Assembly: GCA_035530055.1 (NCBI GenBank)
Contig: DATKVN010000010.1
Coordinates: 6,344-70,343 of the forward strand
Source: a bacterium
GTDB lineage: Bacteria; UBA6262; WVXT01
Direction: 5' to 3'
Length of the DNA stretch: 64,000 nt
Part shown: positions 1,683 to 61,670 of the stretch, piece by piece
Position numbering within the stretch: position 1 is the stretch's first letter
Layout of the letters: each line of letters opens with the position of its first letter
The notes under the pieces: generated by a model
The model's database searches: none
What the model was told of the DNA's origin: nothing
What the model saw: the letters and a program-made list of their open reading frames with translations, nothing else
Translations under genes and position numbers: made by a program

Positions 1683-1705
1683 ATGTCAAATTCCGGGGAA
1701 ATTCC

Positions 1706-1779
1706 GGGGACACAATACTTAATTATCTCACTTGAACCCCTTTCCCCGCATCCAGTCAATAATTGAGTATTGTGTCCCC
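1706..1779. repeat. Minimal inverted-repeat pair of the RAYT-associated family (GGGGACACAATACTTAATTAT ... ATAATTGAGTATTGTGTCCCC) with a 30-bp spacer
   Basis: Direct sequence match to the terminal inverted repeats of the RAYT element at 21330-22117. The arms extend to AATTCCGGGGACACAATAC / GTATTGTGTCCCCCGAATT. The element lies between the MFS start and the HEPN gene end. Confidence 0.7.
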
Positions 1780-1793
1780 CGAATTTATTAGAC

Positions 1794-8109: not shown

Positions 8110-8292
8110 GGGACAGCGACCTATTTTTCTTTCTTGTTCGGATTCTAATTTTGGGGGCAGGTCTTGATTATTGAATAAAAAAGTCATTTTCCTCTGTTTC
8201 TTATCTAAACTAATTTTAGTATAAATGTAAAAAAGTAGCCTGTCCCCCTCTTCTTTTCCTACTTCTGTTAAATTAAATGGTCGCTGTCCCTA
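8110..8292. repeat. About 183-bp element bounded by a perfect 14-bp inverted repeat TAGGGACAGCGACC / GGTCGCTGTCCCTA
   Basis: The inverted repeat was seen directly. The same 14-mer recurs at 45811-45824. The right copy supplies the TAG stop of the 8290-8742 gene. Confidence 0.4.
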
Positions 8293-8742
8293 TTTTCTCG
8301 GATAATTTTTCTTAAGCCAATTAAGAATTATTTCTAAAAATCCTTCTGCCTCTTTAATCAACTCTACGGCTTCCAACCCTGAAATTCCACCAGCATAATC
8401 ATAATCGGTTATATTTCTCTTTGCCCTGCAGGAATCAAAATAATCTGCCAAATCATAATAATCTTTACCCATTATTTCTTTCATTGCTTGAAACACAGTA
8501 AAATGATGCCCTGCACCTTCTGGCTTATATCCCTTGCAATAAAGGAGAATTGTAGCTAATTGTAAGACAGCATTATAAGCAGTAACAAACTTTCTATCCG
8601 CAGAAAGACCCTTTACTTTTGCGTCTTTTATATCCCTCTTTACGAGTTCTAACAAATTGCCGATTTCTTTTTTAGATGTCTTATGCCGCCTTAACTTTCC
8701 TTGATTCAATAATTGCTTTAAGTGCATCATTATCTCCCACAA
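8290..8742 (-). CDS. HEPN-domain protein (second copy; partner of the wHTH-MNT at 8681-9283)
   Basis: 150 aa, homologous to the 1794-2351 protein with the same C-terminal block (CRAKRNITDYDYAGG). Its start overlaps the 3' end of the upstream MNT gene. Confidence 0.5.
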   Translation of the reverse strand: MWEIMMHLKQLLNQGKLRRHKTSKKEIGNLLELVKRDIKDAKVKGLSADRKFVTAYNAVLQLATILLYCKGYKPEGAGHHFTVFQAMKEIMGKDYYDLADYFDSCRAKRNITDYDYAGGISGLEAVELIKEAEGFLEIILNWLKKNYPRK

Positions 8743-9283
8743 TGAACATTTTCTTATCTTTTAAAACTGCCTTAAGAAAATGGTCTTTCTGTTTTAGCCT
8801 CTTTATAAATTCCTGCATAGGAAATACTGCATAGTTAATTTCACGCATTAATTCTCTCTTGGGCTTAGAAAGGATAGTTGAAAGTTCTCTTGAGGAGATA
8901 TCTCCTATTACCATTAAGTCAATATCGCTGGAAAGGCTTTCCCCTCCCTTTGCATAAGAACCATAGATAAAAGCGACTTTAATTCCATTTCCCTCAAGAT
9001 TATCTTTTAGAACTTTGGCAATCCCTACGCTCTTAAATAAGATATTCTTTAATTCTTCAAATATAGGACAGTTTCTGTTTACTTTATAATAGACGCGATT
9101 GCCCCGTGTGGTCTTTTCGATAAGACCAAGACTATGAAGTTTCTCTACCTCCCGTTGAACGCCTCTTATGGACTGGTGGGTAATTGCAGAAATTTCTCTT
9201 TGATAAAAGTTATCTCCGGGATTAAACAGGAATAATTTTAAAATCTCAACCCTTGCCTTTGAAGAAAAGAGTTTATCTATCAT
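8681..9283 (-). CDS. Winged-HTH + minimal nucleotidyltransferase fusion protein (second copy)
   Basis: wHTH (VEILKLFLFNPGDNFYQREISAITHQSIRGVQREV) plus NTase motif IYGSYAKGGESLSSDIDLMVI. The listed ORF begins with a TTG, so the start was moved to the ATG that begins MIDKLFSS. Confidence 0.65.
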   Translation of the reverse strand: MIDKLFSSKARVEILKLFLFNPGDNFYQREISAITHQSIRGVQREVEKLHSLGLIEKTTRGNRVYYKVNRNCPIFEELKNILFKSVGIAKVLKDNLEGNGIKVAFIYGSYAKGGESLSSDIDLMVIGDISSRELSTILSKPKRELMREINYAVFPMQEFIKRLKQKDHFLKAVLKDKKMFIVGDNDALKAIIESRKVKAA

Positions 9284-9303
9284 AAACTGCCTCCATATAC
9301 ATC

Positions 9304-9336
9304 TTGTAGTCAATTATATACAATTTGTAGTCAATT
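9304..9336. promoter_or_regulatory. Direct repeats TTGTAGTCAATT x2, 21 bp apart, upstream of the second wHTH-MNT gene
   Basis: Seen directly at 9304-9315 and 9325-9336. The 21-bp periodicity matches the TATCAC palindromes at the first copy. Confidence 0.4.
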
Positions 9337-9344
9337 GTCAAGCA

Positions 9345-9530
9345 AGTTCTGGGGCAAGTTCTGGGGACACAATACTTTGAAGTTCTGGGGACACAATACT
9401 TAATTATTCTTCTTTGGAACTATGGCATCTGCTCCTTCGTATAACACGCAGACTGAAGTCTGCGACTACTTTTCAAACGCAGACCAAGGTCTGCTACTCC
9501 AAACGCTCCGATGAATCGGAGCTACTCCTT
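9345..9530. repeat. Repeat cluster: three AGTTCTGGGG units, a solo RAYT-family left end (9387-9407), a conserved about 50-bp linker, and three short hairpins ending in CTACTCC
   Basis: GGGGACACAATACTTAATTAT at 9387-9407. Hairpins are GCAGACTGAAGTCTGC, GCAGACCAAGGTCTGC and CCGATGAATCGG, each followed by (G)CTACTCC. The same IR-plus-linker-plus-hairpin module occurs at 12989-13075. Confidence 0.8.
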
Positions 9531-9567
9531 ATAAAGACCTGTCTGTAATTCTTCATGATTTTTTTGA

Positions 9568-9984: not shown

Positions 9985-9994
9985 GTTTGCTCCT

Positions 9995-10190
9995 GGGGAG
10001 ACAATACTTAATTATTCTTCTTGGGTACTGGTTTCCCCTTTTTTAATACCTTTCCGGTTATTTCCTCAAGTTCGTTGAAAAAGTTTTTCAACATCCAATA
10101 GTCCAGTCGTGTTTGCCTATTATTATATAGAAGATTTGGCAAAATTTTCAAAAGTCCAGCATCGGGTTCAATAATTAAGTATTGTGTCCC
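9995..10190. mobile_element. MITE (about 196 bp) derived from the RAYT element: terminal IRs GGGGAGACAATACTTAATTAT / ATAATTAAGTATTGTGTCCC
   Basis: The ends are inverted copies of the RAYT-element termini. The first roughly 60 bp match the RAYT 3' coding end (TCTTCTTGGGTACTGGTTTCCCC...). It is about 85% identical to the element at 13813-14005. It fills the gap between a response-regulator stop and the rnk-like start. Confidence 0.75.
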
Positions 10191-10210
10191 TGGAATTTTT
10201 CCCCGGAATT

Positions 10211-10582
10211 TTACCTTAAAACCGCCTTTATTTTCGCAATTACTTCCGATGAGTCAAAAGGTTTTATAAGAAACGTTTTGACCCCCACCGTATTCATAAG
10301 TTTAGCGTGTTCTTTTTCCACATAGAAGCCAGTCATACCAATAATAGGAATATTTGCAGTTTTGCGAAAGCGTTTCAGTTCAGAAGCAACGTGAAACCCG
10401 CTTTTCTTTCCCAACTTAAGGTCAAGCAATATGACATCCGGTTTTATCTTAGACACCATCTTTAGGGCAGATGTGCCATCGCTAAAGACCACAGTATCAT
10501 ACCCGGTCAAATTCAACAGCTCCTGAAGTTCTTCTAAGAACTCTTTATTATCGTCAATAACCATTATCTTCTTTTTTGCCAT
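10211..10582 (-). CDS. Single-domain response regulator (CheY-like receiver)
   Basis: 123 aa with D10/D11 and the phospho-acceptor region (ILLDLKL), and conserved T and K. Confidence 0.85.
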   Translation of the reverse strand: MAKKKIMVIDDNKEFLEELQELLNLTGYDTVVFSDGTSALKMVSKIKPDVILLDLKLGKKSGFHVASELKRFRKTANIPIIGMTGFYVEKEHAKLMNTVGVKTFLIKPFDSSEVIAKIKAVLR

Positions 10583-12965: not shown

Positions 12966-12988
12966 TTTAACCTCGAATTCTCAATTCT

Positions 12989-13075
12989 GGGGACACAATA
13001 CTTAATTATTCTTCAGAATTATGACATCCGCTCTTTCGTATAACACGCAGACTGAAGTCTGCTACTCCTTCCTTT
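12989..13075. repeat. Solo RAYT-family end (12989-13009), conserved linker and GCAGACTGAAGTCTGCTACTCC hairpin
   Basis: Near-identical to the 9387-9470 module. Confidence 0.8.
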
Positions 13076-13163: not shown

Positions 13164-13511
13164 TCATTTTTCCAAATCCTCAAATACCTTTTGGATAAGG
13201 GGTTTAATCATAGAGACATCTTTCTTAACAACCTCCCAGAGAATTTCCAGGTCAACTCCAAAATACTCATGAACCAGCCTGTCCCTCATTCCCGCCATCT
13301 TTTTCCAAGGAACTTCAGGATATTTTTCTCTAATTCTTTTTGGGATATTTTTTGTTGCTTCTCCAATTATCTCAATGGCGCGTACCACTGCATAAATCGT
13401 TTTCTTATCTTTTTTAAATTTATTGAAATTCATACCTTCAGTAAATTTTTCAATGTCATTTATAGAATCAAGAATGTCCTGAATGTAATCTCCATACTCT
13501 CGCTTTTTCAT
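13164..13511 (-). CDS. hepT: HepT-like HEPN toxin (DUF86), type VII toxin-antitoxin
   Basis: 115 aa with the canonical R-x4-H-x-Y motif (RDRLVHEY). It overlaps the mntA stop by 4 bp. Confidence 0.85.
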
Positions 13512-13804
13512 ATATAGACGACCTCCTGTAAGATATGTCTACCGATTCTTGGTTTTAATGCCTTTTTGGAGACAAGATCAACCTTTGCTCCCAATATTTT
13601 CATTAAGTACTCTTCTAGATCCATAAATTCAAAAAGACCTATGGGTTTCTCAAACTCTACAAGAATGTCTATGTCACTCTTTTTTTTCTGTTCATCTCTT
13701 ACAAATGAGCCAAAAATCCCTATCTCTTTCAATTTAAATCTTTTTTTCAGTTCTTGCTTGTGCTTCCTAAGTATATTTTCAATCTTTCTGCGGGTCATGG
13801 CCAT
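13508..13804 (-). CDS. mntA: MntA-like minimal nucleotidyltransferase antitoxin
   Basis: [22 protein letters not shown] matches the GS..DxD NTase motif. The listed start at 13822 lies inside the MITE, so the start is more likely Met7 or Met9 (MAMTRRK) near 13804. Confidence 0.8.
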
Positions 13805-13812
13805 ATAATTCT

Positions 13813-14005
13813 GGGGACACAATACTTAATTGTCTTACTCGCTCCCCTTTTCCCTTTTTAATATTCTTCCCACTATTTCCTCAAGTTTGTTGAAAAAATT
13901 TCTCAACATCCAATAGTCCAGGCGTGCTTGCCTATTGTTATATGGAAGATTTGGCAAAATTTTCAAAAGTCCAGCATCGGGTTCAATAATTAAGTATTGT
14001 GTCCC
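13813..14005. mobile_element. MITE (about 193 bp), second copy; IRs GGGGACACAATACTTAATTGT / ATAATTAAGTATTGTGTCCC
   Basis: Same structure as the 9995-10190 element. Its right IR provides the last codons (GHNT) and the TAA stop of the adjacent B12-radical SAM gene. Its left IR abuts the mntA start. Confidence 0.75.
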
Positions 14006-15279
14006 TGGGCCTTTCCCCGGGACTTTTTGGTATGATAACGACTCCCTAAATTTAATGAACTGTATAGTATTGGGTGACGCTTATTAGCCCAGAATCTTTT
14101 TATTATTGAAGGAAAAGAATCAAATTTATGTCTCGCCCAATGAAAACCTCCCAAAAGTTGGTCAGCAGTCATTCTTAAAGGTTCAAAAACAAGTTTAACA
14201 TTATCATATTTACTCCAATCGTAGCTAAATATTCTACCTTCCTTTTGTAAATCATTAAAGATTTTTGTCCCTGGGTAGGGCGTAAGTAAAACTAATTGTG
14301 CGAAAGCCACTCTAGATTCAATAAGAAACTCAACTGTCTCTTCAAAAATAGATTGATCATCACCATCAAAACCAAAAATTAAACTTACATAAATTAAAAT
14401 ACCTACATCCAGAAACATTTTTATAGCTTCTTTGATCTCTTCTTTACTCTTTAGATTTTTGTGATAACGATTTATTTCTTTAGTAGATACAGATTCTAGA
14501 CCAATAAAGAAACTACAGCAACCAGACTCAGAAGCTAATTTTAATAACTCCCTGTCTTTTACAATATTTATAGCTGATTGCCCTACCCATTTTTTATCCA
14601 TATATTTTAATTCTTTGAAAAGTTCCCTTGCATATTGTTTATTTCCTGTAATGTTGTCGTCTAAAAACATAAGATTTTTCCCTTTAATGGTGGAAATATC
14701 TTTAATTACTTCTTTTATTGGTTTATGCCGAGGACGTGGGCCAAAAAATTTTGTTACTGAACAAAAATCACAATTATAAGGACATCCACGAGTTGTCTCT
14801 ACTGGAACGAGGTTAATAACCCCTGCTTTTCTTTTAACTAAATCTCTTCTGGGTATTACGGAATTATTTAAAAGAGGAAATTCGCTTTTATAAAATTTTT
14901 TTAGCTTATTTTCCTGTACATCTTTTATAACACTATCCCAGATATTTTCTGCTTCTCCAATTACAACAGAATCAGTATATTTTATGGATTCATCCGGTAA
15001 AGTTGTGGGATGAATACCTCCAAGAATGGTCTTTATACCCCTTTCCCTGAACATTATTGATATTTCATAAGCTCTGGGAGCGGTTGCCGTCATGGTTGTT
15101 ATGCCCACCAAATCATATTTCTTGTCAAAATTAATTTTATCCCACGGTTCCTCTACTATTTCAATTTCATGTTCTGGAGGAGTTAATCCCGCCAGTACTG
15201 GCAAAGATAATTGAGGTATATGCAAATTTTTGTGACGATGTTCATCTTTAGGACATGGTGAAATAAATAATATTTTCAT
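13990..15279 (-). CDS. B12-binding domain radical SAM protein
   Basis: 429 aa with an N-terminal cobalamin-binding Rossmann segment (DLVGITTMTATA) and the radical SAM CxxxCxxC motif (CPYNCDFC). Confidence 0.85.
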   Translation of the reverse strand: MKILFISPCPKDEHRHKNLHIPQLSLPVLAGLTPPEHEIEIVEEPWDKINFDKKYDLVGITTMTATAPRAYEISIMFRERGIKTILGGIHPTTLPDESIKYTDSVVIGEAENIWDSVIKDVQENKLKKFYKSEFPLLNNSVIPRRDLVKRKAGVINLVPVETTRGCPYNCDFCSVTKFFGPRPRHKPIKEVIKDISTIKGKNLMFLDDNITGNKQYARELFKELKYMDKKWVGQSAINIVKDRELLKLASESGCCSFFIGLESVSTKEINRYHKNLKSKEEIKEAIKMFLDVGILIYVSLIFGFDGDDQSIFEETVEFLIESRVAFAQLVLLTPYPGTKIFNDLQKEGRIFSYDWSKYDNVKLVFEPLRMTADQLLGGFHWARHKFDSFPSIIKRFWANKRHPILYSSLNLGSRYHTKKSRGKAQGHNT

Positions 15280-15296
15280 TATAAACTCCTAATTAC

Positions 15297-15367
15297 GGGG
15301 ACACAATACTTAATTATGACGCAGGCTGAAGCCTGCGGCTACCGTTTCAAACGCAGACTGAAGTCTG
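15297..15367. repeat. Solo RAYT-family end (15297-15317) followed by GCAGGCTGAAGCCTGC and GCAGACTGAAGTCTGC hairpins
   Basis: Direct sequence match to the other family members. Confidence 0.8.
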
Positions 15368-17035
15368 CTATTCCTTCAGCGCTTTGGCGTTTTTTTCATA
15401 AAATGTAGAAGGCTCATAAACCTGACCGTTAGCAAGTTTTTTTGCCTCTCTTTTCATAGCAAAGTATAGCCCTCTGCCCAATAGTGAAGCCATTATCCTG
15501 GTTTTCCAACCGAACTCCTTGTATAAATCTTGAAGAAGTGAGATGATTTTCTTCGACATAAGTTCGTCTTTCCTGTACCATTTTTTTATCGCCCAAACTG
15601 CTCCCGTATAATAATCGATGGATTTTTTAATCTCCCATTCAAAACGATTACGAATACGTGGATCCGGATGGTTTTTGTATCTTTTCCATCCTATTAGCAT
15701 GGTTCGAATCATTCGGGCAATGCTGGGACCGTTTATCTCGAAGTCCTGACGAAAGGCTCTGAGAAGAAACTCGGTTTCCTGACCATTGTAAATGTGCTTA
15801 TGGCGATAATTAAAGCGGTATTGACCGTGTCTATCTGCGGTGGGACATTCTTCTTCAGACAAAAGACTTCCTTCCTTCAGGAGCTGTTCATGAAGAGGCG
15901 TGCCAGGAGCCGGGATGTACAGCATAAACTGGTGGAAGTCCGTATCATGACTAACTGCCCAATCTATAATTTGATCAATGTTTTCCGTAGTATGGTTTTC
16001 TAAACCGATAATAGTTGACCCCATAACGCGAATGCCATGTGATTGCATATCTTGTACAAACGAGTGGGTATCTATCCCTTTAAGCTTTGCATACTGACTG
16101 TTCTCACCTTCCAGTCCTATCCATACCCAGGAAATTCCCAAACCCACCAGCTGTTTGACTGTATAAAATTTCAGAGCCTTGACAGAACTGAAAACGAACA
16201 AAGACCAACTCTTATTGTGCTGTTCCATTAATTCTAACAACCTTAATGCTCTTTTATGATGTAGAAGAAAGTTTTCATCAAGGATGAAGAAAGACCGACT
16301 CTTGAGCTCTTTTTCAATCTGACACATAATGGAAAAAAGAGAATCTCCAGTTTCATAAAAGTTTATGAATTTCCCCTTACCACCAAATAGGGCAGAAGTG
16401 GAACAAAAATTACAGCCCACCGGGCATCCTACTGATGGTATTAAAATTGCAGCGGTATTTCTTTTTGAAAGAGTTATACCAAAAATACGGCCGCCAAATG
16501 CAGAAAGAACTATTGGATGTCTTACTGAAACGTTTTCATCCTGTCCCAGGAACCTTCGAAACCAGCTGACACCTTCTCCTTTGACAATATAATCCGCATC
16601 AATGATATTATGAATATTGGGTATACTGGCAATATGCCCGCCCACAACAATCGTTGCCTTAGGTAAGTATTTGCGTATCACCTCACACATCTTTTTTGCC
16701 TTCCCGATATTGGGAATAATTGAACTAATTCCAACAATATCATAAGAATGGCTTTGGATTTCATTGGTAAAACGGTCGAGGGTAGGAAAATCTAAAAGCG
16801 TACATGGCGCATCAATGTTTGCCTGAAGCAGCATCAATCCAAATGAACGATGGAACAGGCGAAGAGAAAAAGGACCTTGCTCCCGAGTAACCTGGTTATG
16901 ATAAAGTTCCATCGGGTTAATCTTTCGGCTTCCATATTCATCGTCTTGTGCGTAGGGGCCAAATACGCTGGATAATAAAACTTTAGCTTGAGACTTAAGT
17001 GGATGTACAGGATTACTTGTGTTCATAATATTCAT
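15368..17035 (-). CDS. B12-binding domain radical SAM protein (second, longer paralogous type)
   Basis: 555 aa with a B12-binding segment (DIVGISSIIPNIGKAK...VVGGHIASIP) and CPVGCNFC. Confidence 0.85.
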   Translation of the reverse strand: MNIMNTSNPVHPLKSQAKVLLSSVFGPYAQDDEYGSRKINPMELYHNQVTREQGPFSLRLFHRSFGLMLLQANIDAPCTLLDFPTLDRFTNEIQSHSYDIVGISSIIPNIGKAKKMCEVIRKYLPKATIVVGGHIASIPNIHNIIDADYIVKGEGVSWFRRFLGQDENVSVRHPIVLSAFGGRIFGITLSKRNTAAILIPSVGCPVGCNFCSTSALFGGKGKFINFYETGDSLFSIMCQIEKELKSRSFFILDENFLLHHKRALRLLELMEQHNKSWSLFVFSSVKALKFYTVKQLVGLGISWVWIGLEGENSQYAKLKGIDTHSFVQDMQSHGIRVMGSTIIGLENHTTENIDQIIDWAVSHDTDFHQFMLYIPAPGTPLHEQLLKEGSLLSEEECPTADRHGQYRFNYRHKHIYNGQETEFLLRAFRQDFEINGPSIARMIRTMLIGWKRYKNHPDPRIRNRFEWEIKKSIDYYTGAVWAIKKWYRKDELMSKKIISLLQDLYKEFGWKTRIMASLLGRGLYFAMKREAKKLANGQVYEPSTFYEKNAKALKE

Positions 17036-21251: not shown

Positions 21252-21329
21252 TTTATTGTACCTTTGCTAACATTATACAAGTTTATTCATAAAAGTAAAG
21301 TAAATTTTGTGAGTTCTGGGGTGAGTTCT

Positions 21330-22117
21330 GGGGACACAATACTTAATTATTATTCTTGGGTCCTGGTTTCCCCTTTTTTAATACCTTTCCGGTTATTTCC
21401 TCAAGTTTAGTAATAAATTTATCATCACCTAAAGGTCGACCGGTGCGGGCATGTTCTCTGAAGAGATTCCTATCTATGTCTCTATCGTCTTCAGCAAGAT
21501 ATGATGACCAGTCTTCTATTTCTGAAAGCATAAAGTTATCAGAAAGTAAAATATCCTTTTCTTTCAGAACATGAGCTTTCGCACTCGACCAAGGGTAATC
21601 TTCAGCCCTTTTCACTAACCCTGCTCTTACTGGATTCCGTTCAACATAACGGACAGCCGCATAAAGATACTGCTCGTCCAATGGATAAGATATAAATCGC
21701 CCCTGCCACAGATATCCCCTCCACCCTTCACGGAAATTAATCATGCGGGTATAGTATCTGTGTACCTGACCTATTCCCCTCGCTAAACTGTCTTCATTCT
21801 TGGGGACAGCTATTAAATGCACATGATTATCCATCAAACAATATGCCCAGAAAATTACACCAGCTTCTATGGCATGCTTATATAGAAGATTAATGTAGGA
21901 TTTCTTATCTTGGTCGCTGAAGAATACATTCTGAGAGCGATTGCCACGTTGGATAATATGATGAGGATAGTTAAGTATGACGATACGTGCTATTCGTGCC
22001 ATGACATAATTCTAACAAATCAAGTATCAGAAATCAATAATTAAGTATTGTATCCCGGAAACTGGTGGGACGGAACTGGTGGGGCGAAACTGGTGGATAA
22101 TTAAGTATTGTGTCCCC
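21330..22117. mobile_element. REP-associated tyrosine transposase (RAYT / IS200-like) element with 21-bp terminal inverted repeats and a duplicated right end
   Basis: Left IR GGGGACACAATACTTAATTAT (21330-21350). Right IRs at 22036-22056 (degenerate) and 22097-22117, separated by three GAACTGGTGGG units. It is preceded by the GAGTTCTGGGG x2 micro-duplication. Confidence 0.8.
21343..22002 (-). CDS. REP-associated tyrosine transposase (IS200/IS605 TnpA-like, HuH)
   Basis: 219 aa with the HuH motif (MDNHVHLIAVP) and conserved Y in the YYTRMINF region. The architecture matches RAYT/Y1 transposases. The stop codon lies inside the left IR. Confidence 0.85.
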   Translation of the reverse strand: MARIARIVILNYPHHIIQRGNRSQNVFFSDQDKKSYINLLYKHAIEAGVIFWAYCLMDNHVHLIAVPKNEDSLARGIGQVHRYYTRMINFREGWRGYLWQGRFISYPLDEQYLYAAVRYVERNPVRAGLVKRAEDYPWSSAKAHVLKEKDILLSDNFMLSEIEDWSSYLAEDDRDIDRNLFREHARTGRPLGDDKFITKLEEITGKVLKKGKPGPKNNN

Positions 22118-22157
22118 GGAATTATTTCGCCCCTACGTGATTCGCAAGGATTCCATA

Positions 22158-24054: not shown

Positions 24055-26391
24055 TTATGAACCTAATTTCCAGGAGATTCCTGCAAAAATTCTCCTGCCG
24101 GGCATTGGATAGCCAAAAACTGTCTGGTATTTTTTATCAAGAATGTTATCGAGAGAAATATACGCTTCCAGATTTCTGATTCTTTGAGCAATCCTCGCAT
24201 TAAGCAAAAAGCAGTCTGGTAATTTATCCCCTGTCTTTCCTCTATCGCTCCATTGTTCGTCAACATATTCTGTTCCTAAACTTAACTTTAAACCAAAATT
24301 GTTAGCATAATTAATCCTGTAGTTGACTCGATTGTGGGGATTATAAGGCGCAATTTCATACTTATCTTCTCCTTCTTTCTTCCCTGCGCTGCGGATATAG
24401 GTATAATTTATGCTCTGAGAAAGTCCTGACATAATTTGATGGATAAATTCTAATTCTACGCCCTGGCTATAGGCTTGGGCGACGTTAGAAGGCCTCCATA
24501 TAAAAGATGGATCCATTGCCCACTCTATCAAATCCTCTATGTTGGTCTCGAATAGGGTCACCCTGCTTAATAAAAAATTCCCTAATTGGTGTTCAAATCC
24601 AAGGTCATAAGCCCAGGCCTTTTCTGGCTTCAAATCGGGATTCCCCTCTGCTTGATAACCATAATCTGTGTAAGGCTGGTATAGATCGCAGAACGTTGGC
24701 GCTCGAAAGCCCCTTCCCAGATTGAACGAAAGTTTTAAAGATTCTCCTGGCTGAGAGAGCTGATAGACCAAACTGAAACTGGGATTTATTTGACCTCCAT
24801 ATGCTGAATGGTTGTCGTAGCGGAGGCCCATTGTTGTAGTCAATGGCTTAAGGGATAGAATCTCCTGGAGAAAGATAGATTCATTTAAGGTCCTTTCACC
24901 AATTATGGTCTGTGAATTGATTTTATTTCTCTGCTTATATTCATCCTGGTGAATGTCCATACCGAGTGTTATCCCGTATAGAGTATCTAACTGAGTCTCT
25001 ACTCCCCGGGTAACATTTTCGTGAAGGTCATCTCTTAGCTCATCGGGATTTCGGTCTCTCCTTTGGTCGTTACTGCCATAGGCTTTGAGCAACAATTTTG
25101 AATTTTCTCCTCCATTTGAGTATTCTAAAATGGCGTATTCTTTCTCGTCCTCCTGATTGTGGTTAGGGTCGGATGCGAATTTTTCCTCTAAAATAATTTT
25201 TTCCCATGTACTTGAGTCAAACGTATAATTAACACCGGGTAGTCCCAGTTTTCCTCTATGGTAACCGCCTCTAAGTTCAAAATTTCCGATTTTCCCGGCA
25301 CTGTATGCTAATCTCCCTGTAAAATTATGGTTGTCATACGCACTATTTTCCCGCCAGCCGTTGGAAGTATTGTTACTTATTGTAAAGTAGGTTTTAATAT
25401 TGGTATCTTTTGTTCCGAAATTTAATCTAGCTATCTGGGTGCCAAAACTTCCTAAACCAAAATTTACATCAGCTGTTACCTTCTCGTCTTTTGCTTCTCT
25501 GGTAATGATATTGACTACTCCTCCCAGAGCATTGGCACCGTAGAGGGCTGAGGCAGGACCGCGCACAACTTCTATTCTTTCAATATTGTCTATGGAAAAT
25601 TGGCTCAGGTCGGCTATTCCATCTGAGGTGCTATTTATAGAGCGACCATCGACCATTACTAGTGTCTGATATGCGGAACAACCCCGAAGCCCAATGTAAG
25701 AGGGAGCTCCCAAGGTTCCATATCTTCTTACTTCTACGCCCAATCTGTTTTTAAGGACTTCTCCCACGTTGTGAGCGTTACTTTCGGCGATTTCTTTCCT
25801 GGTGATTACACTGACGTTTGTGGGTAAATCTTTTAGCATTCTGGGGCCCCTGGTGGGAGTAATTACGATGACTCCCATGTCCCCCATATAGACTGCCTGT
25901 TCCTCTCTATGTTCCTTCTCCTTCTCTATCTCTATCTCCCTCTCTTCTATCTTCTGAGAGGAGACTATCTTCTCCTCTTCCACTTTCTCCCTCACTTCTT
26001 TTAAGTCCTTTTCCAGCTGTTCCTTTAAGATATTGGCCTCTTCTTCTCTCCTTGTCCTCTCAAATTCAAGTTTATCTACCCTCTTCTTGAGCTCCCGTTC
26101 CATTCTATTCTTCTCTTCCTCTTTAGCCCTGAGTCTCCCTTCAACTTCACGCTTGACTTCCTCAATTAATGCCTTCTCCTTCTCTATCTCTATCTCTATC
26201 TCTATCTCTATCTCCCTCTCTTCTATCTTCTCAGAGGAGACTCTCTTTTCCTCTGCCACTTTCTCCCTTACTTCCTTTAACTCCTTTCCCAGCCAGGCGA
26301 GACCAACCACAAGTAGAATGGCTGCCGAAATCAAAATTAAATTTTTCTTTCTTAGTAACATCCAGATTACCCCCTTAAGAAATGTTTCCAA
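24055..26391 (-). CDS. TonB-dependent outer-membrane receptor (BtuB-like by context) with an about 170-aa N-terminal hydrophobic anchor and E/K-rich coiled-coil extension
   Basis: TonB-box-like MGVIVITPTR, then the plug (NIERIEVVRGPASALYGANALGGVVNIITR), a 22-strand barrel and a C-terminal aromatic residue. The N-terminal extension contains an internal direct DNA duplication and a (TCTCTA)n hexamer tract encoding EIEIEIEIE. Confidence 0.8.
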   Translation of the reverse strand: METFLKGVIWMLLRKKNLILISAAILLVVGLAWLGKELKEVREKVAEEKRVSSEKIEEREIEIEIEIEIEKEKALIEEVKREVEGRLRAKEEEKNRMERELKKRVDKLEFERTRREEEANILKEQLEKDLKEVREKVEEEKIVSSQKIEEREIEIEKEKEHREEQAVYMGDMGVIVITPTRGPRMLKDLPTNVSVITRKEIAESNAHNVGEVLKNRLGVEVRRYGTLGAPSYIGLRGCSAYQTLVMVDGRSINSTSDGIADLSQFSIDNIERIEVVRGPASALYGANALGGVVNIITREAKDEKVTADVNFGLGSFGTQIARLNFGTKDTNIKTYFTISNNTSNGWRENSAYDNHNFTGRLAYSAGKIGNFELRGGYHRGKLGLPGVNYTFDSSTWEKIILEEKFASDPNHNQEDEKEYAILEYSNGGENSKLLLKAYGSNDQRRDRNPDELRDDLHENVTRGVETQLDTLYGITLGMDIHQDEYKQRNKINSQTIIGERTLNESIFLQEILSLKPLTTTMGLRYDNHSAYGGQINPSFSLVYQLSQPGESLKLSFNLGRGFRAPTFCDLYQPYTDYGYQAEGNPDLKPEKAWAYDLGFEHQLGNFLLSRVTLFETNIEDLIEWAMDPSFIWRPSNVAQAYSQGVELEFIHQIMSGLSQSINYTYIRSAGKKEGEDKYEIAPYNPHNRVNYRINYANNFGLKLSLGTEYVDEQWSDRGKTGDKLPDCFLLNARIAQRIRNLEAYISLDNILDKKYQTVFGYPMPGRRIFAGISWKLGS

Positions 26392-26457
26392 TAACGCAGA
26401 GCGGTCGCTCTGCGGCTACAGGTTGCTGCACAATTTGAAATTGTGCCTACAAATCCA

Positions 26458-26670
26458 ACCTCCCTTTCGGGAGGACTCCAAAGACCCTGGAGTCCTTGCG
26501 AAAGCAAGGTCCCCTATATACCTCCCTTTCGGGAGGACTCCAAAGACCCTGGAGTCCTTGCGAAAGCAAGGTCCCCTATATACCTCCCTCTCGGCAGGAC
26601 TCCAAAGACCCTGGAGTCCTTGCGAAAACAAGGTCCCCTATATACCTCCCTCTCGGCAGGACTCCGGACT
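26458..26670. repeat. Tandem array of 3.4 x 62-bp units, each made of three hairpins (CCTCCC-TTTC-GGGAGG; GGACTCC-N9-GGAGTCC; CCTTGC-GAAA-GCAAGG)
   Basis: Units at 26458-26519, 26520-26581, 26582-26643 and a partial at 26644-26670 are over 93% identical. They lie between the cobO stop and the TonB-dependent receptor start. Confidence 0.9.
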
Positions 26671-30100: not shown

Positions 30101-30268
30101 TTGTAGCCGCAAAGCGTAAGCTTTGCCTCATTTTAGCAGAGCTATCGCTCTGCAGCTACAATTTTATGGGTAGTGTAGCCTTTTATGGTCGTAATCGTAA
30201 TATAATTGTAGTGTAGCCCTTTATGGGCGTAATGTTTACGGGCATAAAGCCCTACACTACAAAAACCA
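30101..30268. repeat. Intra-operon mosaic of hairpin modules (AGCAAAGCGTAAGCTTTGC; GCAGAGCTATCGCTCTGC; GTAGTGTAGCC...GGCTACACTAC doublets)
   Basis: It shares modules with 49179-49340, 57340-57478 and 58590-58660. Confidence 0.8.
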
Positions 30269-32610: not shown

Positions 32611-32780
32611 AAACCCAACCTTCACTTGAAAGTTGGGACTGAAGCCTTATGAATTCGGCCAACCCTCCCGCGAAGGCACTATATTGCAAACAGGTTCTCG
32701 GACTTGCTTCTGTTAAGAAGCTCACCGTTGCGGGGCAGTGTCCGGTTTTCACGGACTTCCCCTATTTACATAAAAAATAT
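32611..32780 (-). promoter_or_regulatory. Cobalamin (AdoCbl) riboswitch with terminator-type expression platform
   Basis: Minus-strand RNA reads GGGGAAGUCCGUGAAAACCGGACACUGCCCCGCAACGGUGAGC ... AAGUCCGAGAACCUGUUUGC (B12-box-like), then the terminator CCCAACUUUCAAGUGAAGGUUGGG + UUUUUU ending 22 nt before the cobU ATG. Confidence 0.8.
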
Positions 32781-32787
32781 TTAATTT

Positions 32788-32818
32788 ATTCTACTATATA
32801 TGCTCTTCCTCTGTCAAG
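32788..32818 (-). promoter_or_regulatory. Sigma70-like promoter for the riboswitch-cob/btu operon
   Basis: Minus-strand TTGACA (32813-32818), a 19-nt spacer, then TAGAAT (32788-32793). The spacer is one or two nt longer than optimal. Confidence 0.4.
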
Positions 32819-33699: not shown

Positions 33700-33795
33700 G
33701 TCCTGCCGATTTCATCGGGGGAATAACTATCTTCCTCCCTCTCGGGAGGACTCCATACCCAGACTTTCTTCGGGAGGAATCCAGAAAAATTTAAA
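33700..33795. repeat. Hairpin modules (CCCCGATGAAATCGGGG; CCTCCCTCTCGGGAGG; GGACTCC)
   Basis: Members of the CCTCCC/GGGAGG family. Confidence 0.7.
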
Positions 33796-33801
33796 AATTA
33801 C

Positions 33802-33876
<75 letters not shown>

Positions 33877-36112: not shown

Positions 36113-36298
36113 TTCAGTGCATGCGTTAGAAGGTCTCTGAAAATTCTGGACTCCTTGCGAATCGCGTAGGGGCGACCCTTGTGGTCGCCCGAACCTCCCT
36201 TTCGGGAGGACTCCACAAATTCTGGATTCCTTGCGAGAGCAAGGTTTTTTCCTCCCTCCCTTTCGGGAGGACTCCAAACTCCGATTTTGATAGGGCTC
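36113..36298. repeat. Hairpin-module mosaic (GCGACCCTTGTGGTCGCC; two CCTCCCTTTCGGGAGGACTCC units; CCTTGCGAGAGCAAGG)
   Basis: Members of the CCTCCC/GGGAGG family. Confidence 0.8.
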
Positions 36299-41757: not shown

Positions 41758-41809
41758 CTTTTAGTATTTGGTAGCTCCGATTCATCGGAGCGTCAAGGAG
41801 TAGCAGACT

Positions 41810-42334
41810 TTAGTCTGCGTCCAAGAATTCCTTTTTCAACTCTTCTGGCAATATCTTTCGATTTTCTAAAGTTACCTCAATGAGTTCTACGTCTTCTCTT
41901 TTTCTAATGGCATCAATAAACTTATTGTGTCTTTCCTGGAGTGTGCCGATTACTCTTTTGGAGCTATCGAGTGCTTTAATTACTGCTTCCTGAAATTTAG
42001 GAGAATAGAGTTCCATCCTTCCAATCTCGTCGATGAGGATAATCTTTTTCTTATCATCATTTACAGCAAGAGAAATGCTCCTCCCGGCAATATTCTCTAA
42101 ATCTTCAATATTAACTCCGTATTTCCCTACTCGATAAGGGCTGTTTAAAGCTTTATAAGCTAAGATTCCCTTTTTACCCCTGAGAGTAATAATCCTGAAT
42201 CCTTTCCTCTCCCCTTGCTGGCGAATCTCCTCAGTATAGAATCCTCCCACTTCTTTCAACCCGCTAATCAATTTCATAATAACTGTGGTCTTTCCCACAC
42301 CGGGTCTACCGGTGAAGAGAATGTTCTTCTTCAT
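41810..42334 (-). CDS. NTPase, THEP1/COG1618-like P-loop protein
   Basis: 174 aa with the P-loop FTGRPGVGKTT. Confidence 0.65.
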   Translation of the reverse strand: MKKNILFTGRPGVGKTTVIMKLISGLKEVGGFYTEEIRQQGERKGFRIITLRGKKGILAYKALNSPYRVGKYGVNIEDLENIAGRSISLAVNDDKKKIILIDEIGRMELYSPKFQEAVIKALDSSKRVIGTLQERHNKFIDAIRKREDVELIEVTLENRKILPEELKKEFLDAD

Positions 42335-43976: not shown

Positions 43977-44055
43977 GCCTTCTCGTTCATTATAGAAACC
44001 TCCCTTTCGGGAGGACTCCGAAAAAAGGGGCCTGACCCCTTTTTTACCCCTTTTT

Positions 44056-47169: not shown

Positions 47170-47533
47170 TATCGTCGATATAGGATAGAATAGCAAAAGA
47201 ACTAAAATTTGTCAATTAAAACTGTCTACTTGACTATTTATACTAATTTTGAGGGTCTTAAGTGGAGGGAGCTTGATTTTCTGGGAAGCTGTGCAGGCTT
47301 TAGTTTTTGGAGTCCTCCCGAAAGGGAGGAAAGCAAAAAGTTGTAGCTCGAGAGCGACAACTCTGCATTGTAGGGGCGGCACTCCGTGGCCGCCCAAATG
47401 AAGGGACGGCACAGAATCCGTCCCCTACAGAGAGGCAAAGCTTACGCTTTGCTGCTACATTTTTGAATAACCCTTGCTTTCGCAAGGACTCCATAGGTTG
47501 TGAAATGTTCCGATGGATCGGAGCTACTCCATA
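47170..47533. repeat. About 360-bp intergenic mosaic of hairpin modules
   Basis: Modules in order: GGAGTCCTCCCGAAAGGGAGG; GAGAGCGACAACTCTGC; GGGGCGGCACTCCGTGGCCGCCC; GGGACGGCACAGAATCCGTCCCC; GCAAAGCTTACGCTTTGC; CTTGCTTTCGCAAGG; CCGATGGATCGGAGCTACTCC. Confidence 0.85.
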
Positions 47534-47839
47534 TTAAAATTGGAAGCTGGGGGTGTCGTAGGTGCACTGGCAGGGGATTTTTTTGCACTTGGGACAGCCT
47601 TCTTTATACTTTTCGATTTCCTTTTCTACATTCACATCTAAAAGGTTGGCTAAACTTAAAAACCAGGCAAAAACATCTCCTACTTCTTCCTTAAAATCAC
47701 TCTTTTTGCCTTCACGAATTAGCTTGGCTAACTCCCCTACTTCTTCAATAAACCAGACAAAAGTCCTGGCAAGTCCTCTCTTCTTGTCTCTGGAATAGTA
47801 GAGTTTGTGCATTAGATTCTGAAATTCTCTTATTTCCAA
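47534..47839 (-). CDS. MazG-like nucleotide pyrophosphohydrolase domain protein
   Basis: 101 aa. EEVGELAK...EEVGDVFAW matches the EExxE...E..D metal-binding pattern. Confidence 0.7.
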   Translation of the reverse strand: MEIREFQNLMHKLYYSRDKKRGLARTFVWFIEEVGELAKLIREGKKSDFKEEVGDVFAWFLSLANLLDVNVEKEIEKYKEGCPKCKKIPCQCTYDTPSFQF

Positions 47840-49178: not shown

Positions 49179-49340
49179 AAAGGTCGCCCCTACGCGACCA
49201 AAACATTATCCGTAGTGTAGCCCTTTATGGGCGTAATCTCTACGGGGACAAGCCCCTACACTACTTACATTGACGCACCGTTACGGACATAAAGACCTGC
49301 ATTGCCAATGAAGCAGAGCTTCGCTCTGCTGCTACATTCG
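49179..49340. repeat. REPIN-like doublets: TACGGGCATAAAGCCCCTG ... GTAGTGTAGCCCTTTATGGGCGTAAT...TACGGGGACAAGCCCCTACACTAC plus GCAGAGCTTCGCTCTGC
   Basis: Inverted pairs begin with GTAG. The same unit occurs at 30170-30265 and 58595-58650. Confidence 0.8.
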
Positions 49341-51446: not shown

Positions 51447-51630
51447 ACAAAATTTTTGGTATTTCCTTGTTTTTTATCTTATATCTTTTTGGAAAAAAAG
51501 TCAATATTCCCAAATAATAACTGGTAGTCAGGGACTTCATCTTTTGGAGTCCTCCCGAAAGGGAGGAAAGACCCCCTATTTCATCGGGGGAACCCAGAAG
51601 TTGCGGTTACTAAATAATAAAATAGAAAGG

Positions 51631-51922
51631 CTTGAAATGAACCTGTAAGCCGAATCCTGTATTCCGACTACAAATCGGAACGATGGTTATTTATCTAAGC
51701 GACCAACCCATAGAGTAGTAACGAGACGGGCCGTCTCTCCTCTGCTATTCGGTCTTGCTCCGAGTGGGGTTTAGCCTTTTCACTACAGCATTACCTGTAC
51801 CTGGTTTCTGTGCCACTTTCCGTAGGATCGCTCCCCTTCCGTTTACACGGAACACCCTGCCCTGTGGAGTTCGGACTTTCCTCTCCGATAAATATCGGAG
51901 CAACCATCCGGTTCACTTCAAA
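51631..51922 (-). ncRNA. rnpB: RNase P RNA, bacterial type A, compact
   Basis: Minus strand reads GAAGUGAACC...AGGAAAGUCCGAACUCCACAGGGCAGGGUG...GGAAAGUGCCACAGAAA...AAACCCCACUCGGAGCAAGACCGAAUAG...ACGGCCCGUC...CGCUUAGAUAAAUAACC...GGCUUACAGGUUCAUUUC. The P1 helix pairs 5' GAAGUGAACC with 3' GGUUCAUUUC. Confidence 0.85.
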
Positions 51923-51934
51923 CCTATATATACG

Positions 51935-52047
51935 CAGGCTAAAGCCTGCGGCTACCATTTATTATTGGGTAGTCGCAACCTTTAGGTTGCGTTATGTACG
52001 CAGACTAAAGTCTGCTACTCCTAAGACGCTCCGATGAATCGGAGCTA
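51935..52047. repeat. Hairpin modules (GCAGGCTAAAGCCTGC; GCAACCTTTAGGTTGC; GCAGACTAAAGTCTGC; CCGATGAATCGG, each followed by (G)CTAC)
   Basis: Same family as 9440-9530 and 42385-42440. It abuts the rnhA stop. Confidence 0.8.
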
Positions 52048-52650
52048 CTACTTTTTTATTGCTATACTGGCAAGTTGGTCGGCTACCTTATTCTTATTTC
52101 TACCTATCAGGCAATAAGTCACTTTTTCAAACTTGCCTTCGAGGTTTTTTGCTTGTTGGAATAGTCTCCGTAGGTCTTTGTTGTTTATTCGAAACCTTCC
52201 GTCCATCTGATTAATCAACAATTGGGAATCGCTGAATACGTTAACACTTTGCGCTAATAGCTTTTTACTCTCTTTCAATCCCTGAATTAAAGCCTTGTAT
52301 TCAGCTACATTGTTAGTTGCTAAACCGATATATTTATTTACCTCTTTAATTTTCTTCTTTTTCTCATCATAAATAACTACCCCGATCCCGGAAGGGCCGG
52401 GATTGGGCTCTGCAGATCCATCGACATATACCTTGAGATTTCTGTATCTTTTAACTCCGGGGAAAGATTTTACCATAGAAGCTGCAACGGAGATAGCTTT
52501 CCATATTTCTTTATCGGTGAGCCCAGGAAGTCTCTTCTTTGCTGAGCGAAAAGACTTCTCCTGGGCAAGAGTGTTCAATATCCTGTAGGTCTCTTCCCTT
52601 AACTCAGATTCCTTCACTTTTCTTCCTTCAGATATAGTATCCTCAAACAA
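52048..52650 (-). CDS. rnhA: Ribonuclease HI with N-terminal extension
   Basis: RNase H catalytic DEDD residues in VYVDGSA, AEYKAL, SDSQLLI and the C-terminal D. 200 aa. Confidence 0.85.
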   Translation of the reverse strand: MFEDTISEGRKVKESELREETYRILNTLAQEKSFRSAKKRLPGLTDKEIWKAISVAASMVKSFPGVKRYRNLKVYVDGSAEPNPGPSGIGVVIYDEKKKKIKEVNKYIGLATNNVAEYKALIQGLKESKKLLAQSVNVFSDSQLLINQMDGRFRINNKDLRRLFQQAKNLEGKFEKVTYCLIGRNKNKVADQLASIAIKK

Positions 52651-54449: not shown

Positions 54450-54521
54450 TGGGCAATGCTGGGGTTGAACCAGCGACTTCTGCCTTGTGAAAGCAGCGCT
54501 CTCCCGCTGAGCTAATTGCCC
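54450..54521 (-). tRNA. tRNA-Val (anticodon CAC), CCA not encoded
   Basis: Reverse complement GGGCAATTAGCTCAGCGGGAGAGCGCTGCTTTCACAAGGCAGAAGTCGCTGGTTCAACCCCAGCATTGCCCA. Anticodon loop TTCACAA, T-loop GGTTCAACC. Confidence 0.9.
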
Positions 54522-54554
54522 TTAAAAAGAATTTTCAAAATTTTCCAACGCAGA

Positions 54555-54666
54555 CCAAGGTCTGCTACTCCACAGTCTTTTGGAGTAGCGAAACTTGTTT
54601 CGCGTTAATAACAAGGTCTGCTACTCCACAGTCTTTTGGAGTAGCGAAACTTGTTTCGCGTTAATA
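54555..54666. repeat. Perfect tandem duplication, 2 x 56 bp (AAGGTCTGCTACTCCACAGTCTTTTGGAGTAGCGAAACTTGTTTCGCGTTAATAAC)
   Basis: Each unit contains the nested inverted repeat GCTACTCC...GGAGTAGC and GCGAAAC-TT-GTTTCGC. A single copy occurs at 61600-61660. Confidence 0.9.
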
Positions 54667-54735
54667 ACGCAGAGCAATCTCTGCTTATTCCTTTTAAAAT
54701 AATTATAATGCGATAATGAAATTTTGTCAAGAAGT

Positions 54736-58589: not shown

Positions 58590-58660
58590 TAAGTTGTAGG
58601 TAGTGTAGCCCTTTATGGGCGTAATTTTTACGGGGACAAGCCCCTACACTACCAATTTAA
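58590..58660. repeat. REPIN-like GTAG doublet (GTAGTGTAGCCCTTTATGGGCGTAAT...TACGGGGACAAGCCCCTACACTAC)
   Basis: Third copy of this unit. Confidence 0.8.
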
Positions 58661-61568: not shown

Positions 61569-61589
61569 TCACACCTCAAACTACCTTGC

Positions 61590-61670
61590 TTTCGCAAGGA
61601 CTCCATTGTTTCTGGAGTAGCGAAACTTGTTTCGCGTTAATAACGCAGAGCAAGCTCTGCTACTCCATTG
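61590..61670. repeat. Hairpin modules (CTTGCTTTCGCAAGGACTCC; GGAGTAGCGAAACTTGTTTCGC; GCAGAGCAAGCTCTGCTACTCC)
   Basis: Single copy of the 56-bp unit that is duplicated at 54555-54666. Confidence 0.8.

Follow-up and report, generated by a model that had tools for sequence, protein, structure and literature searches.

What does a tyrosine transposase gene do in a genome where it occupies one fixed locus, while the repeats that frame it recur without it over the neighboring 20 kb? The question is raised by a 64,000-nucleotide (nt) stretch of bacterial DNA (contig DATKVN010000010.1), which we call the window. Here a gene for a protein of 219 amino acids (aa) lies between inverted copies of a 21-nt repeat, GGGGACACAATACTTAATTAT, and the same repeat is found at gaps between other genes. 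We think that this is probably a TIRtron: a single-copy TIRYT gene (RAYT Group 1 or TnpAY1 subclass 2.1 type) with terminal inverted repeats (TIRs) of about 28 nt and gene-less derivatives, whose product would act as a nickase in trans. RAYT-like genes flanked by long TIRs, and not by repetitive extragenic palindromes (REPs), have been named TIRtrons and TIRYTs (Di Nocera, De Gregorio, Rocco 2013, BMC Genomics 14:522, PMC3733652), and as a catalogue entry the locus is an ordinary member of that already described class. The behavior of its ends, reconstructed here from near-identical strains and from other genomes, may say something about how the enzyme works.

The gene itself is the following.

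21343..22002, minus strand: TIRYT gene, encoding a 219-aa Y1 HUH tyrosine transposase-like protein (Pfam, PDB, fold, and alignment)

Pfam Y1_Tnp matches the protein (E 4e-10), and its top sequence match in the PDB is the Escherichia coli TnpA-REP structure 4ER8 (E 2e-4), with Y119 aligned to the catalytic Y115. An AlphaFold2 model (mean pLDDT 89.3) also finds 4ER8 as its best Foldseek match (E 2.4e-8; fold-aligned identity 18%), followed by the ISDra2, IS608, and IS200 transposases. A first-pass annotation of this DNA had placed the product among Y1 HUH tyrosine transposases of the RAYT branch, and the agreement of sequence and fold on 4ER8 supports that placement. The catalytic residues are present on alignment with 4ER8 and with 43 homologs of 46-87% identity: the HUH motif is H60-V61-H62, within D-N-H-V-H at 58-62, and the tyrosine lies in Y119-V-E-R-N-P, accompanied by W99-Q100 and the SS pair S139-S140. 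Invariant positions among those 43 homologs are N59, H62, W99, R102, Y119, E121, N123, P124, S139, and S140, with H60 conserved at 90% or more. The last 80 or so residues form a conserved helical tail, TGRPLG..F..LE..TGR.L..KPGPK. A tblastn search for a second copy of the gene in the window returned none.

The 21-mer occurs 12 times at seven intergenic loci of the window (three mismatches were allowed and at most two were seen), against no copies in 100 dinucleotide-preserving shuffles, and exact copies are also present in the closest GTDB relative, WJOT01, in at least six stretches on at least five contigs. The start sites are as follows.

1706 (+), 1759 (-), 9387 (+), 9995 (+), 10171 (-), 12989 (+): 21-mer copies
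13813 (+), 13986 (-), 15297 (+), 21330 (+), 22037 (-, 2 mismatches), 22097 (-): remaining 21-mer copies

A real Y1_Tnp reading frame with 21-bp inverted ends, and an inverted-repeat family of its own made up of the framing ends and the gene-less copies, had both been proposed at first pass, and both are borne out. The eight loci then reported come to seven, eight being reached only if the doubled right end is taken separately, and the coordinates 22036, 10190, and 14005 were each off by one. All copies are confined to 1.7-22.1 kb, the other 42 kb having none, and every one sits in a short gap between minus-strand genes. Judged by the end that retains sequence resembling the 3′ part of the gene, all seven loci are oriented alike, co-directional with those genes. 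GC skew is negative over the entire window. The uniform orientation could reflect a strand bias relative to replication; a replication-related strand bias is known for single-strand transposons. Conservation reaches about 7 nt beyond the 21-mer (A[A/G]TTC[C/T]G followed by GGGACAC...), so that the full repeat of about 28 nt consists of a 7-nt semi-variable outer part and GGGGACACAATACTTAATTAT.

At the gene, the repeats and their partial copies are arranged in this way.

21310..21321, plus strand: stutter unit TGAGTTCTGGGG, a tandem partial copy of the C-side repeat's outer end
21322..21350, plus strand: C-side TIR, an 8-nt outer flank TGAGTTCT and the 21-mer core with 0 mismatches
22037..22057, minus strand: inner N-side repeat CGGGATACAATACTTAATTAT, 2 mismatches, 34 nt upstream of the ATG
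22058..22096, minus strand: three tandem 14-nt units CCACCAGTTTCGCC / CCACCAGTTCCGTC / CCACCAGTTTCCGG, given from the outer repeat inward
22097..22125, minus strand: outer N-side repeat, a perfect 21-mer with an AATTCC flank

The C-side repeat overlaps the final 8 nt of the coding sequence and contains the stop codon TAA (AAT AAT TAA). On the other side, the single N-side repeat of homologs lies at the position equivalent to the inner repeat at 22037-22057. The 14-nt units are partial copies of the outer flank of that inner repeat, the third running 3 nt further into the repeat itself (22055-22057); there are three such units in the window versus five in WJOT01.

Six loci in the window have the repeat and no gene, among them two miniature inverted-repeat elements of the type usually called MITEs.

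1688..1786: minimal pair, with a stutter unit at 1688-1698, a repeat at 1699-1726 (+), a 32-nt spacer, and a repeat at 1759-1786 (-)
9343..9407, plus strand: solo repeat at 9380-9407 after stutter units at 9343-9354 (12 nt) and 9355-9379 (25 nt)
9989..10212: first MITE, with repeats at 9995-10015 (+) and 10171-10191 (-), a flank at 10192-10200, and a stutter unit at 10201-10212
12975..13009, plus strand: solo repeat at 12989-13009, with the flank CAATTCT and an upstream GAATTCT copy
13807..14027: second MITE, with repeats at 13813-13833 (+) and 13986-14006 (-)
15291..15317, plus strand: solo repeat ending exactly at the inner end of the 21-mer and abutting REP hairpins (GACGCAGGCTGAAGCCTGC...)

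The MITEs had been described as keeping the 3′ end of the gene, correctly: the first aligns with the gene's 3′ side over 93 nt at 90% identity, a span that takes in the repeat and some 65-70 nt of coding sequence. Its interior is about 67 nt of the gene's 3′ end, then unrelated sequence. The two MITEs are 85-89% identical to each other, and their repeat cores retain 20 of 21 positions. Inward of the solo repeat at 9380-9407 there are about 20 nt of gene 3′-like sequence, followed by REP hairpins with a GGAGT tag.

The short micro-duplications beside the repeats, thought at first pass to stand at each locus and to look like a repeated target or guide, prove to be made from the outer end of the repeat itself, copied in part and in tandem; we term this stutter. 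A clear copy is present at six of the 12 ends in the window (1688, 9343, 10201, 12975, 21310, and 22058) and a degenerate one at 14007; the remaining five (1779, 9995, 13813, 15297, and 22117) have none. We found no evidence for a guide role, and the flanks do not behave as a duplicated target. Over 49 pairs, from the window and related loci, the 9-nt flanks agree at 2.2 of 9 positions when compared as direct repeats, which is the chance level, and at 5.4 of 9 as inverted repeats; the outer heptamer therefore belongs to the inverted repeat, and we rejected it as a target-site duplication. For one comparison of a filled with an empty site, the relative L035 and the window at 19.9 kb are too diverged to align through the site; the empty site contains ATTCTG. 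Beyond the window, 29 of 133 exact repeats at fetched loci have at least one stutter copy within 93 nt upstream, versus none in shuffles. The duplicated unit begins 7-10 nt outside GGGACAC in 29 of 31 cases, an outer boundary common to many phyla, whereas its end point is variable and the periods range from 10 to 73 nt.

Look-ups with the window's RAYT protein and a neighboring gene yielded 17 contigs, from several metagenomes, that are 99.2-99.97% identical to 5.8-26.6 kb of the window. The gene is present on 11 contigs, with the same flanking genes in all eight that reach that far. When every alignment gap was listed, all insertions and deletions (indels) of at least 4 nt fell at repeat outer ends except one, a 6-nt microsatellite change (TAGAGA) at 26181. 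The region around that exception, 25900-26300, is CT-rich and microsatellite-like, with CTCTAT repeats and two 101-nt copies 276 nt apart. The variants at repeat ends are these.

21310-21333, the gene's C-side end: one unit in the window, L145, and L146; two in L138; three in L139, L140, and L142 (identical in three samples); three different units in L141
12989, solo end: one extra 11-nt unit (CAATTCTGGGG) in L130-L133
10192-10212, MITE end: 13-nt unit missing from L134 and L135
9377 joined to 1663: the 7.7-kb segment 1664..9376 missing from L134 and L135 (contigs 99% identical)

Units are gained or lost adjoining the full repeat. At the C-side end the number varies from one to three among strains that encode an identical protein; the distal unit is common to all, and what differs is the sequence between that unit and the full repeat. 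The gene's N side is invariant in the strain contigs. Genes for an amino-acid permease-EIIA fusion and a P-type ATPase are in the missing 7.7-kb segment, together with two HEPN/nucleotidyltransferase pairs. Of its two breakpoints, one falls exactly at the outer edge of the flank of the repeat at 9387, and the other is some 25 nt away from the stutter of the pair at 1706. In the more distant relative L104 some 3 kb of different sequence takes the place of the segment, which together with its presence or absence among strains marks the region between the two repeat loci as a variable island; L104 also has the window's MFS N-terminus, so that a deletion in L134 and L135 is favored over an insertion in the window. 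The system had been called active or recently active. Recent change is evident in the stutter and in the repeat-bounded 7.7-kb indel; activity in the sense of new insertion finds no counterpart among these strains.

An exact search for the 20-mer GGGACACAATACTTAATTAT, with one genome per GTDB species, found it in at least 120 genome stretches. The matches listed are labeled Omnitrophota; Alpha-, Gamma-, and Zetaproteobacteria; Desulfobacterota-type groups; Planctomycetes (including Scalindua); Nitrospirae, Actinomycetes, Aminicenantes, Spirochaetota, Saccharibacteria, and others, and they include the isolate Nitrosomonas aestuarii Nm36 and complete chromosomes; CP070837.1 and OZ252091.1 are complete genomes with the 20-mer. 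The window's own closest relatives are labeled "Clostridia bacterium", and its closest named protein homologs are Omnitrophota. A contig binned as a Nanoarchaeota archaeon (L119, JBDRFR010000128.1) has the exact 20-mer with stutter, through either a binning error or a cross-domain occurrence. A scan of IMG/VR for the 20-mer gave 0 matches and so no sign of a phage vector. Genes adjoining the exact 20-mer encode proteins only 46-70% identical to that of the window (for example 46% in L080, 51% in L118, 52% in L113, 53% in L030, and 54% in L008); conservation is thus stronger in the DNA end than in the protein.

The bias inherent in searching by DNA is avoided when homologs are chosen on their protein only. 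Three homologs found in this way (66-75% identity) have repeats at most two mismatches from the 21-mer, with the same substitution on both arms. Distant paralogs (31-46%) and a homolog on a Pseudomonas aeruginosa plasmid (34%) have different repeats, GGGGACAG or GGGGACGG, that still start with GGGGAC; the plasmid homolog combines the GGGGACAG repeat with a doubled N-side repeat and stutter. The outer heptamer differs among genomes (AATTCCG, AATTCTG, AATTAAG, AGTTCGG, AATTATG, and others). In the homologs read, 34-60 nt separate the N-side repeat from the ATG downstream of it, and the C-side repeat covers the stop codon; this arrangement of gene and repeats is kept in homologs of 34% to 99% identity from many phyla. 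In WJOT01 (91-96% identity) the gene occupies the same site; L035 (about 83%) lacks it at the orthologous position and keeps one repeat there. More generally, repeat sites are kept at orthologous positions in relatives of 83-95% nucleotide identity, and synteny with relatives further removed is broken exactly at the edges of repeats. In the literature searched we found neither the repeat sequence itself, nor the cross-phylum 20-mer, nor a polar stutter that is polymorphic among strains.

How might these ends arise? The enzyme would recognize the conserved 20-mer and nick one strand outside it, at a set position 7-10 nt away. When a repeat pair folds into a hairpin as single-stranded DNA, that position would be the hairpin's foot. 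Nicking would create a 5′-phosphotyrosine link and a free 3′-OH, and if the latter were extended variably and then resealed, a partial copy of the end would come to lie beside the full repeat. A failure to reseal, or resealing to another end, could give adjacent deletions and rearrangements that start from repeat edges. Gene-less ends would be acted on in trans, much as RAYTs are proposed to act on REPINs. We infer from these patterns that nicking takes place at the outer boundary of the repeat and that the enzyme is active now. The larger proposition, that the outer ends are a polar record of Y1 HUH catalytic events, in which a trans-acting nick and variable extension also seeded kilobase deletions, is one that we put forward tentatively, as a possibility.

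Several considerations weigh against the account just given. The nick site and the nick-extend-reseal step would both be deductions from the pattern of the sequences, and some junctions contain extra bases that a simple nick-extend model does not predict. Solo ends, which have no nearby hairpin partner, stutter too, and this fits double-strand recognition better than recognition of a hairpin. No insertion of a new repeat element was seen among the strains, so that mobility is thus far a matter of deduction. In an Elusimicrobia species (P0094) the ends of the homolog are invariant, with no stutter polymorphism among strains 98.7-99.4% identical; the dynamics are therefore not universal. The C-terminal 78 aa match no Pfam domain, and no helix-turn-helix (HTH), at an E value of 10. 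The assignment to subclass 2.1 comes from motifs and repeat type and not from the hidden Markov models of the authors who defined it, and many taxon labels, being those of metagenome-assembled genomes, are possibly unreliable.

The stutter and the indels might instead owe nothing to the protein's catalysis and come from replication slippage, fork stalling, or faulty assembly. Tandem units of 11-15 nt can expand by slippage, the count of N-side 14-nt units does differ between relatives, and the ends of the Elusimicrobia homolog are static. Slippage alone nevertheless becomes less likely in view of units that vary in length and end point, not being copies of one another, and of a junction microhomology of at most 1-3 nt. 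It also leaves aside the boundary at 7-10 nt in many phyla, the confinement of changes to the side of the full repeat, and the quiet of other tandem repeats in the compared 20 kb, where there was one 6-nt change only. Identical alleles in independent samples, and units far below the assembly k-mer, argue against artefact. Altogether we consider an origin unrelated to catalysis unlikely. The products of the nick model would equally be expected from an unequal exchange of strands between sister copies.

Other explanations would place the gene in a different kind of system. One is the canonical REP/REPIN arrangement of TnpAY1 subclasses 2.2, 2.4, and 2.5 and RAYT Groups 2 and 3, with a domesticated RAYT spreading palindromic, GTAG-tagged REP doublets, and a REP/REPIN-type system was indeed the first-pass reading. 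A protein closest to TnpA-REP in sequence and fold, encoded by a single-copy gene at a fixed locus, would suit it, as would inverted doublets that form long hairpins like REPINs: the pair at 1688-1790, as single-stranded DNA, folds into a hairpin with a 27-bp stem (-20.8 kcal/mol, z -5.5). Repeat pairs, however, fold as any inverted repeat does, whereas a single unit is non-palindromic, with a folding free energy (dG) of 0, and the 28-mer has no GT[AG]G tag. We also considered, and rejected, a small hairpin between the outer and inner AATT of one repeat; the window's variants do not fold so, and only repeats with the AATTAAG flank, seen in other genomes, do (-3.4 kcal/mol). The NCBIfam RAYT equivalog (NF047646, REP_Tyr_transpos) scores 62.3 bits, below its cut-off of 80; the true GGAGT/GTAG hairpins of the window, 28 against 1.2 in shuffles, do not flank the transposase gene; and the literature treats TIR-flanked genes as a separate class (PMC6006769, PMC3733652). 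We judge a canonical REP/REPIN system to be quite unlikely and that reading not to hold. Still more doubtful is an autonomous, selfish element of the IS200/IS605 type, now transposing, with the MITEs and solo ends as its recent debris, although the Y1_Tnp match, the derivatives with internal deletions and both ends, and the density of copies within 20 kb would all be natural for one. There is a single gene copy in 64 kb, in the same context in eight of eight contigs that reach its flanks. The tyrosine motif is Y-x3-N-P and not Y-x3-Q (PMC6006769), and the ends are inverted repeats with none of the asymmetric subterminal hairpins of such elements, so that the label IS200-like does not apply either. 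Against this reading also stand two MITEs only 85-89% identical to each other, repeat sites shared by orthologous position with relatives of 83-95% nucleotide identity, and strains with no insertion polymorphism. Finally, an unrelated DDE transposase elsewhere could have moved an ordinary MITE family, leaving the Y1 gene to lie by chance between two copies. TIRs with short gene-less copies do look MITE-like, yet the 49 pairs show no target-site duplication, no DDE gene lies between or beside the repeats in the window, and the gene-repeat arrangement is conserved too widely and deeply among homologs; this is scarcely credible.

If the nicking account is true, natural variation would locate the cut site of the TIRYT class, and the enzyme would be a nickase that cuts single strands at a specific sequence, its site being both universal and unusually long. 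The locus and its strain variants yield predictions that can be tested, namely the 20-mer as recognition site and a cut point 7-10 nt outside it; the literature searched contains no paper that tests the cut site or the repeat spread of TIR-flanked RAYT-like genes. In the natural population sampled here, repeat ends are the main source of indels, both small and large, over these 20 kb. Were the account confirmed, the RAYT/REPIN picture of long-lived intragenomic repeat populations would extend to a non-palindromic type of repeat.

Two further repeat populations occur in the window. The REP-like hairpins already mentioned are the larger. Their 5′ tag is GGAGT, in the form GGAGTAG or GGAGTCC, and a stem of 6 bp closes on a loop of 4 nt. 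The stems vary by subfamily with pairing kept (CCTCCC/GGGAGG, CCTTGC/GCAAGG, CAGACY/RGTCTG, CGAAAC/GTTTCG), and some of the hairpins form 56- or 62-nt tandem arrays. No cognate RAYT for them was found in the window. Such hairpins come after all three solo 21-mer ends, and in the relative L104 one hairpin stands between two 21-mer arms.

9448-9535, 13047-13068, 15321-15374, 26453-26670, 33728-33757, 36188-36278: GGAGT hairpins
41797-41820, 43993-44022, 47298-47537, 51535-52058, 54525-54667, 61578-61666: remaining GGAGT hairpins
30164-30260, 49206-49264, 58594-58652: third family, 53-nt units GTAGTGTAGCCCTTTATGGGCGTAAT...GGGGACAAGCCCCTACACTAC

The outer ends of the 53-nt units, GTAGTGTAG and CTACACTAC, are complementary, and the units resemble the "double-foot" GTAG REPs of TnpAY1 subclass 2.4.

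The transposase gene has glgC on one side and, on the other, a gene for a MerR-type HTH protein followed by nth. Toxin-antitoxin-like pairs of HEPN (or HepT) and nucleotidyltransferase (MNT) genes are present at 1794-2965, 8290-9313, and 13164-13822, each directly adjoining a 21-mer locus. A general link between the repeat and such pairs was rejected: among the matches listed, four of 120 other 21-mer loci have a HEPN/nucleotidyltransferase homolog, and the association is therefore local. An Rfam scan at gathering thresholds gave nothing at any repeat locus of the window. Its matches lay elsewhere and point to an ordinary chromosomal context.

51630-51919: class A RNase P RNA
32673-32808: cobalamin riboswitch
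33805-33876: tRNA
54450-54521: tRNA

Set beside known systems, the locus shares with the IS200/IS605 transposases (IS608, ISDra2) a Y1 HUH fold, precise ends defined by sequence, and the lack of a target-site duplication; it differs in having none of their asymmetric ends, subterminal hairpins, Y-x3-Q motif, or multiple identical copies. E. coli TnpA-REP has the same HUH/Tyr core as the window's protein. In the 2012 work of Ton-Hoang and of Messing it is reported to be encoded by a single-copy gene flanked by inverted cognate repeats, with hairpins in single-stranded DNA as its presumed substrate. A REP of E. coli is a short, imperfect palindrome that has a GTAG guide on its 5′ side, in contrast to the non-palindromic 28-mer of the window, where hairpins come from pairs only.

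The closest likeness is to the TIR-flanked genes. These make up the second largest TnpAY1 subclass, behind the IS200-type transposases; 20 of 26 TIRYTs fall in subclass 2.1 (Quentin, Siguier, Chandler, Fichant 2018, PMC6006769), whose counterpart is RAYT Group 1 (Bertels, Gallie, Rainey 2017, PMC5581495). Its published motifs are NHVH, W[EQ], YIELNP / Y[IV]HLNP, and SS, and its C-terminal extension has similarity to the HTH domains Bac_DnaA_C, HTH_23, and HTH_28 (PMC6006769); the subclass has no REPs nearby, a low copy number, and a patchy but wide taxonomic spread (PMC6006769, PMC5581495). The window's protein matches NHVH, WQ, and SS, its YVERNP is one position off the consensus, and it is 219 aa long against a median of 238. 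It too has an additional domain at the C terminus, one with no Pfam HTH match, and lacks GTAG REPs next to the gene; its copy number is low and its taxonomic spread wide and patchy. The repeats described for TIRYTs share, in the main group, the motif GGGGWSAS, often overlap one end of the gene, and are moderately abundant, occurring singly, as dimers, or in groups; partial end copies in tandem, and their polymorphism among strains, are not mentioned in that paper by text search (PMC3733652). Here, too, a RAYT-like Y1 gene stands between long TIRs, one of which overlaps its 3′ end, and the repeats recur; they start with GGGGACAC, which fits GGGGWSAS (W = A, S = C, A, S = C). The difference lies in the extent of what is shared, an 8-nt motif in the TIRtrons reported so far (PMC3733652) and, for the repeat described here, a full 20-mer that is identical across many labeled phyla.

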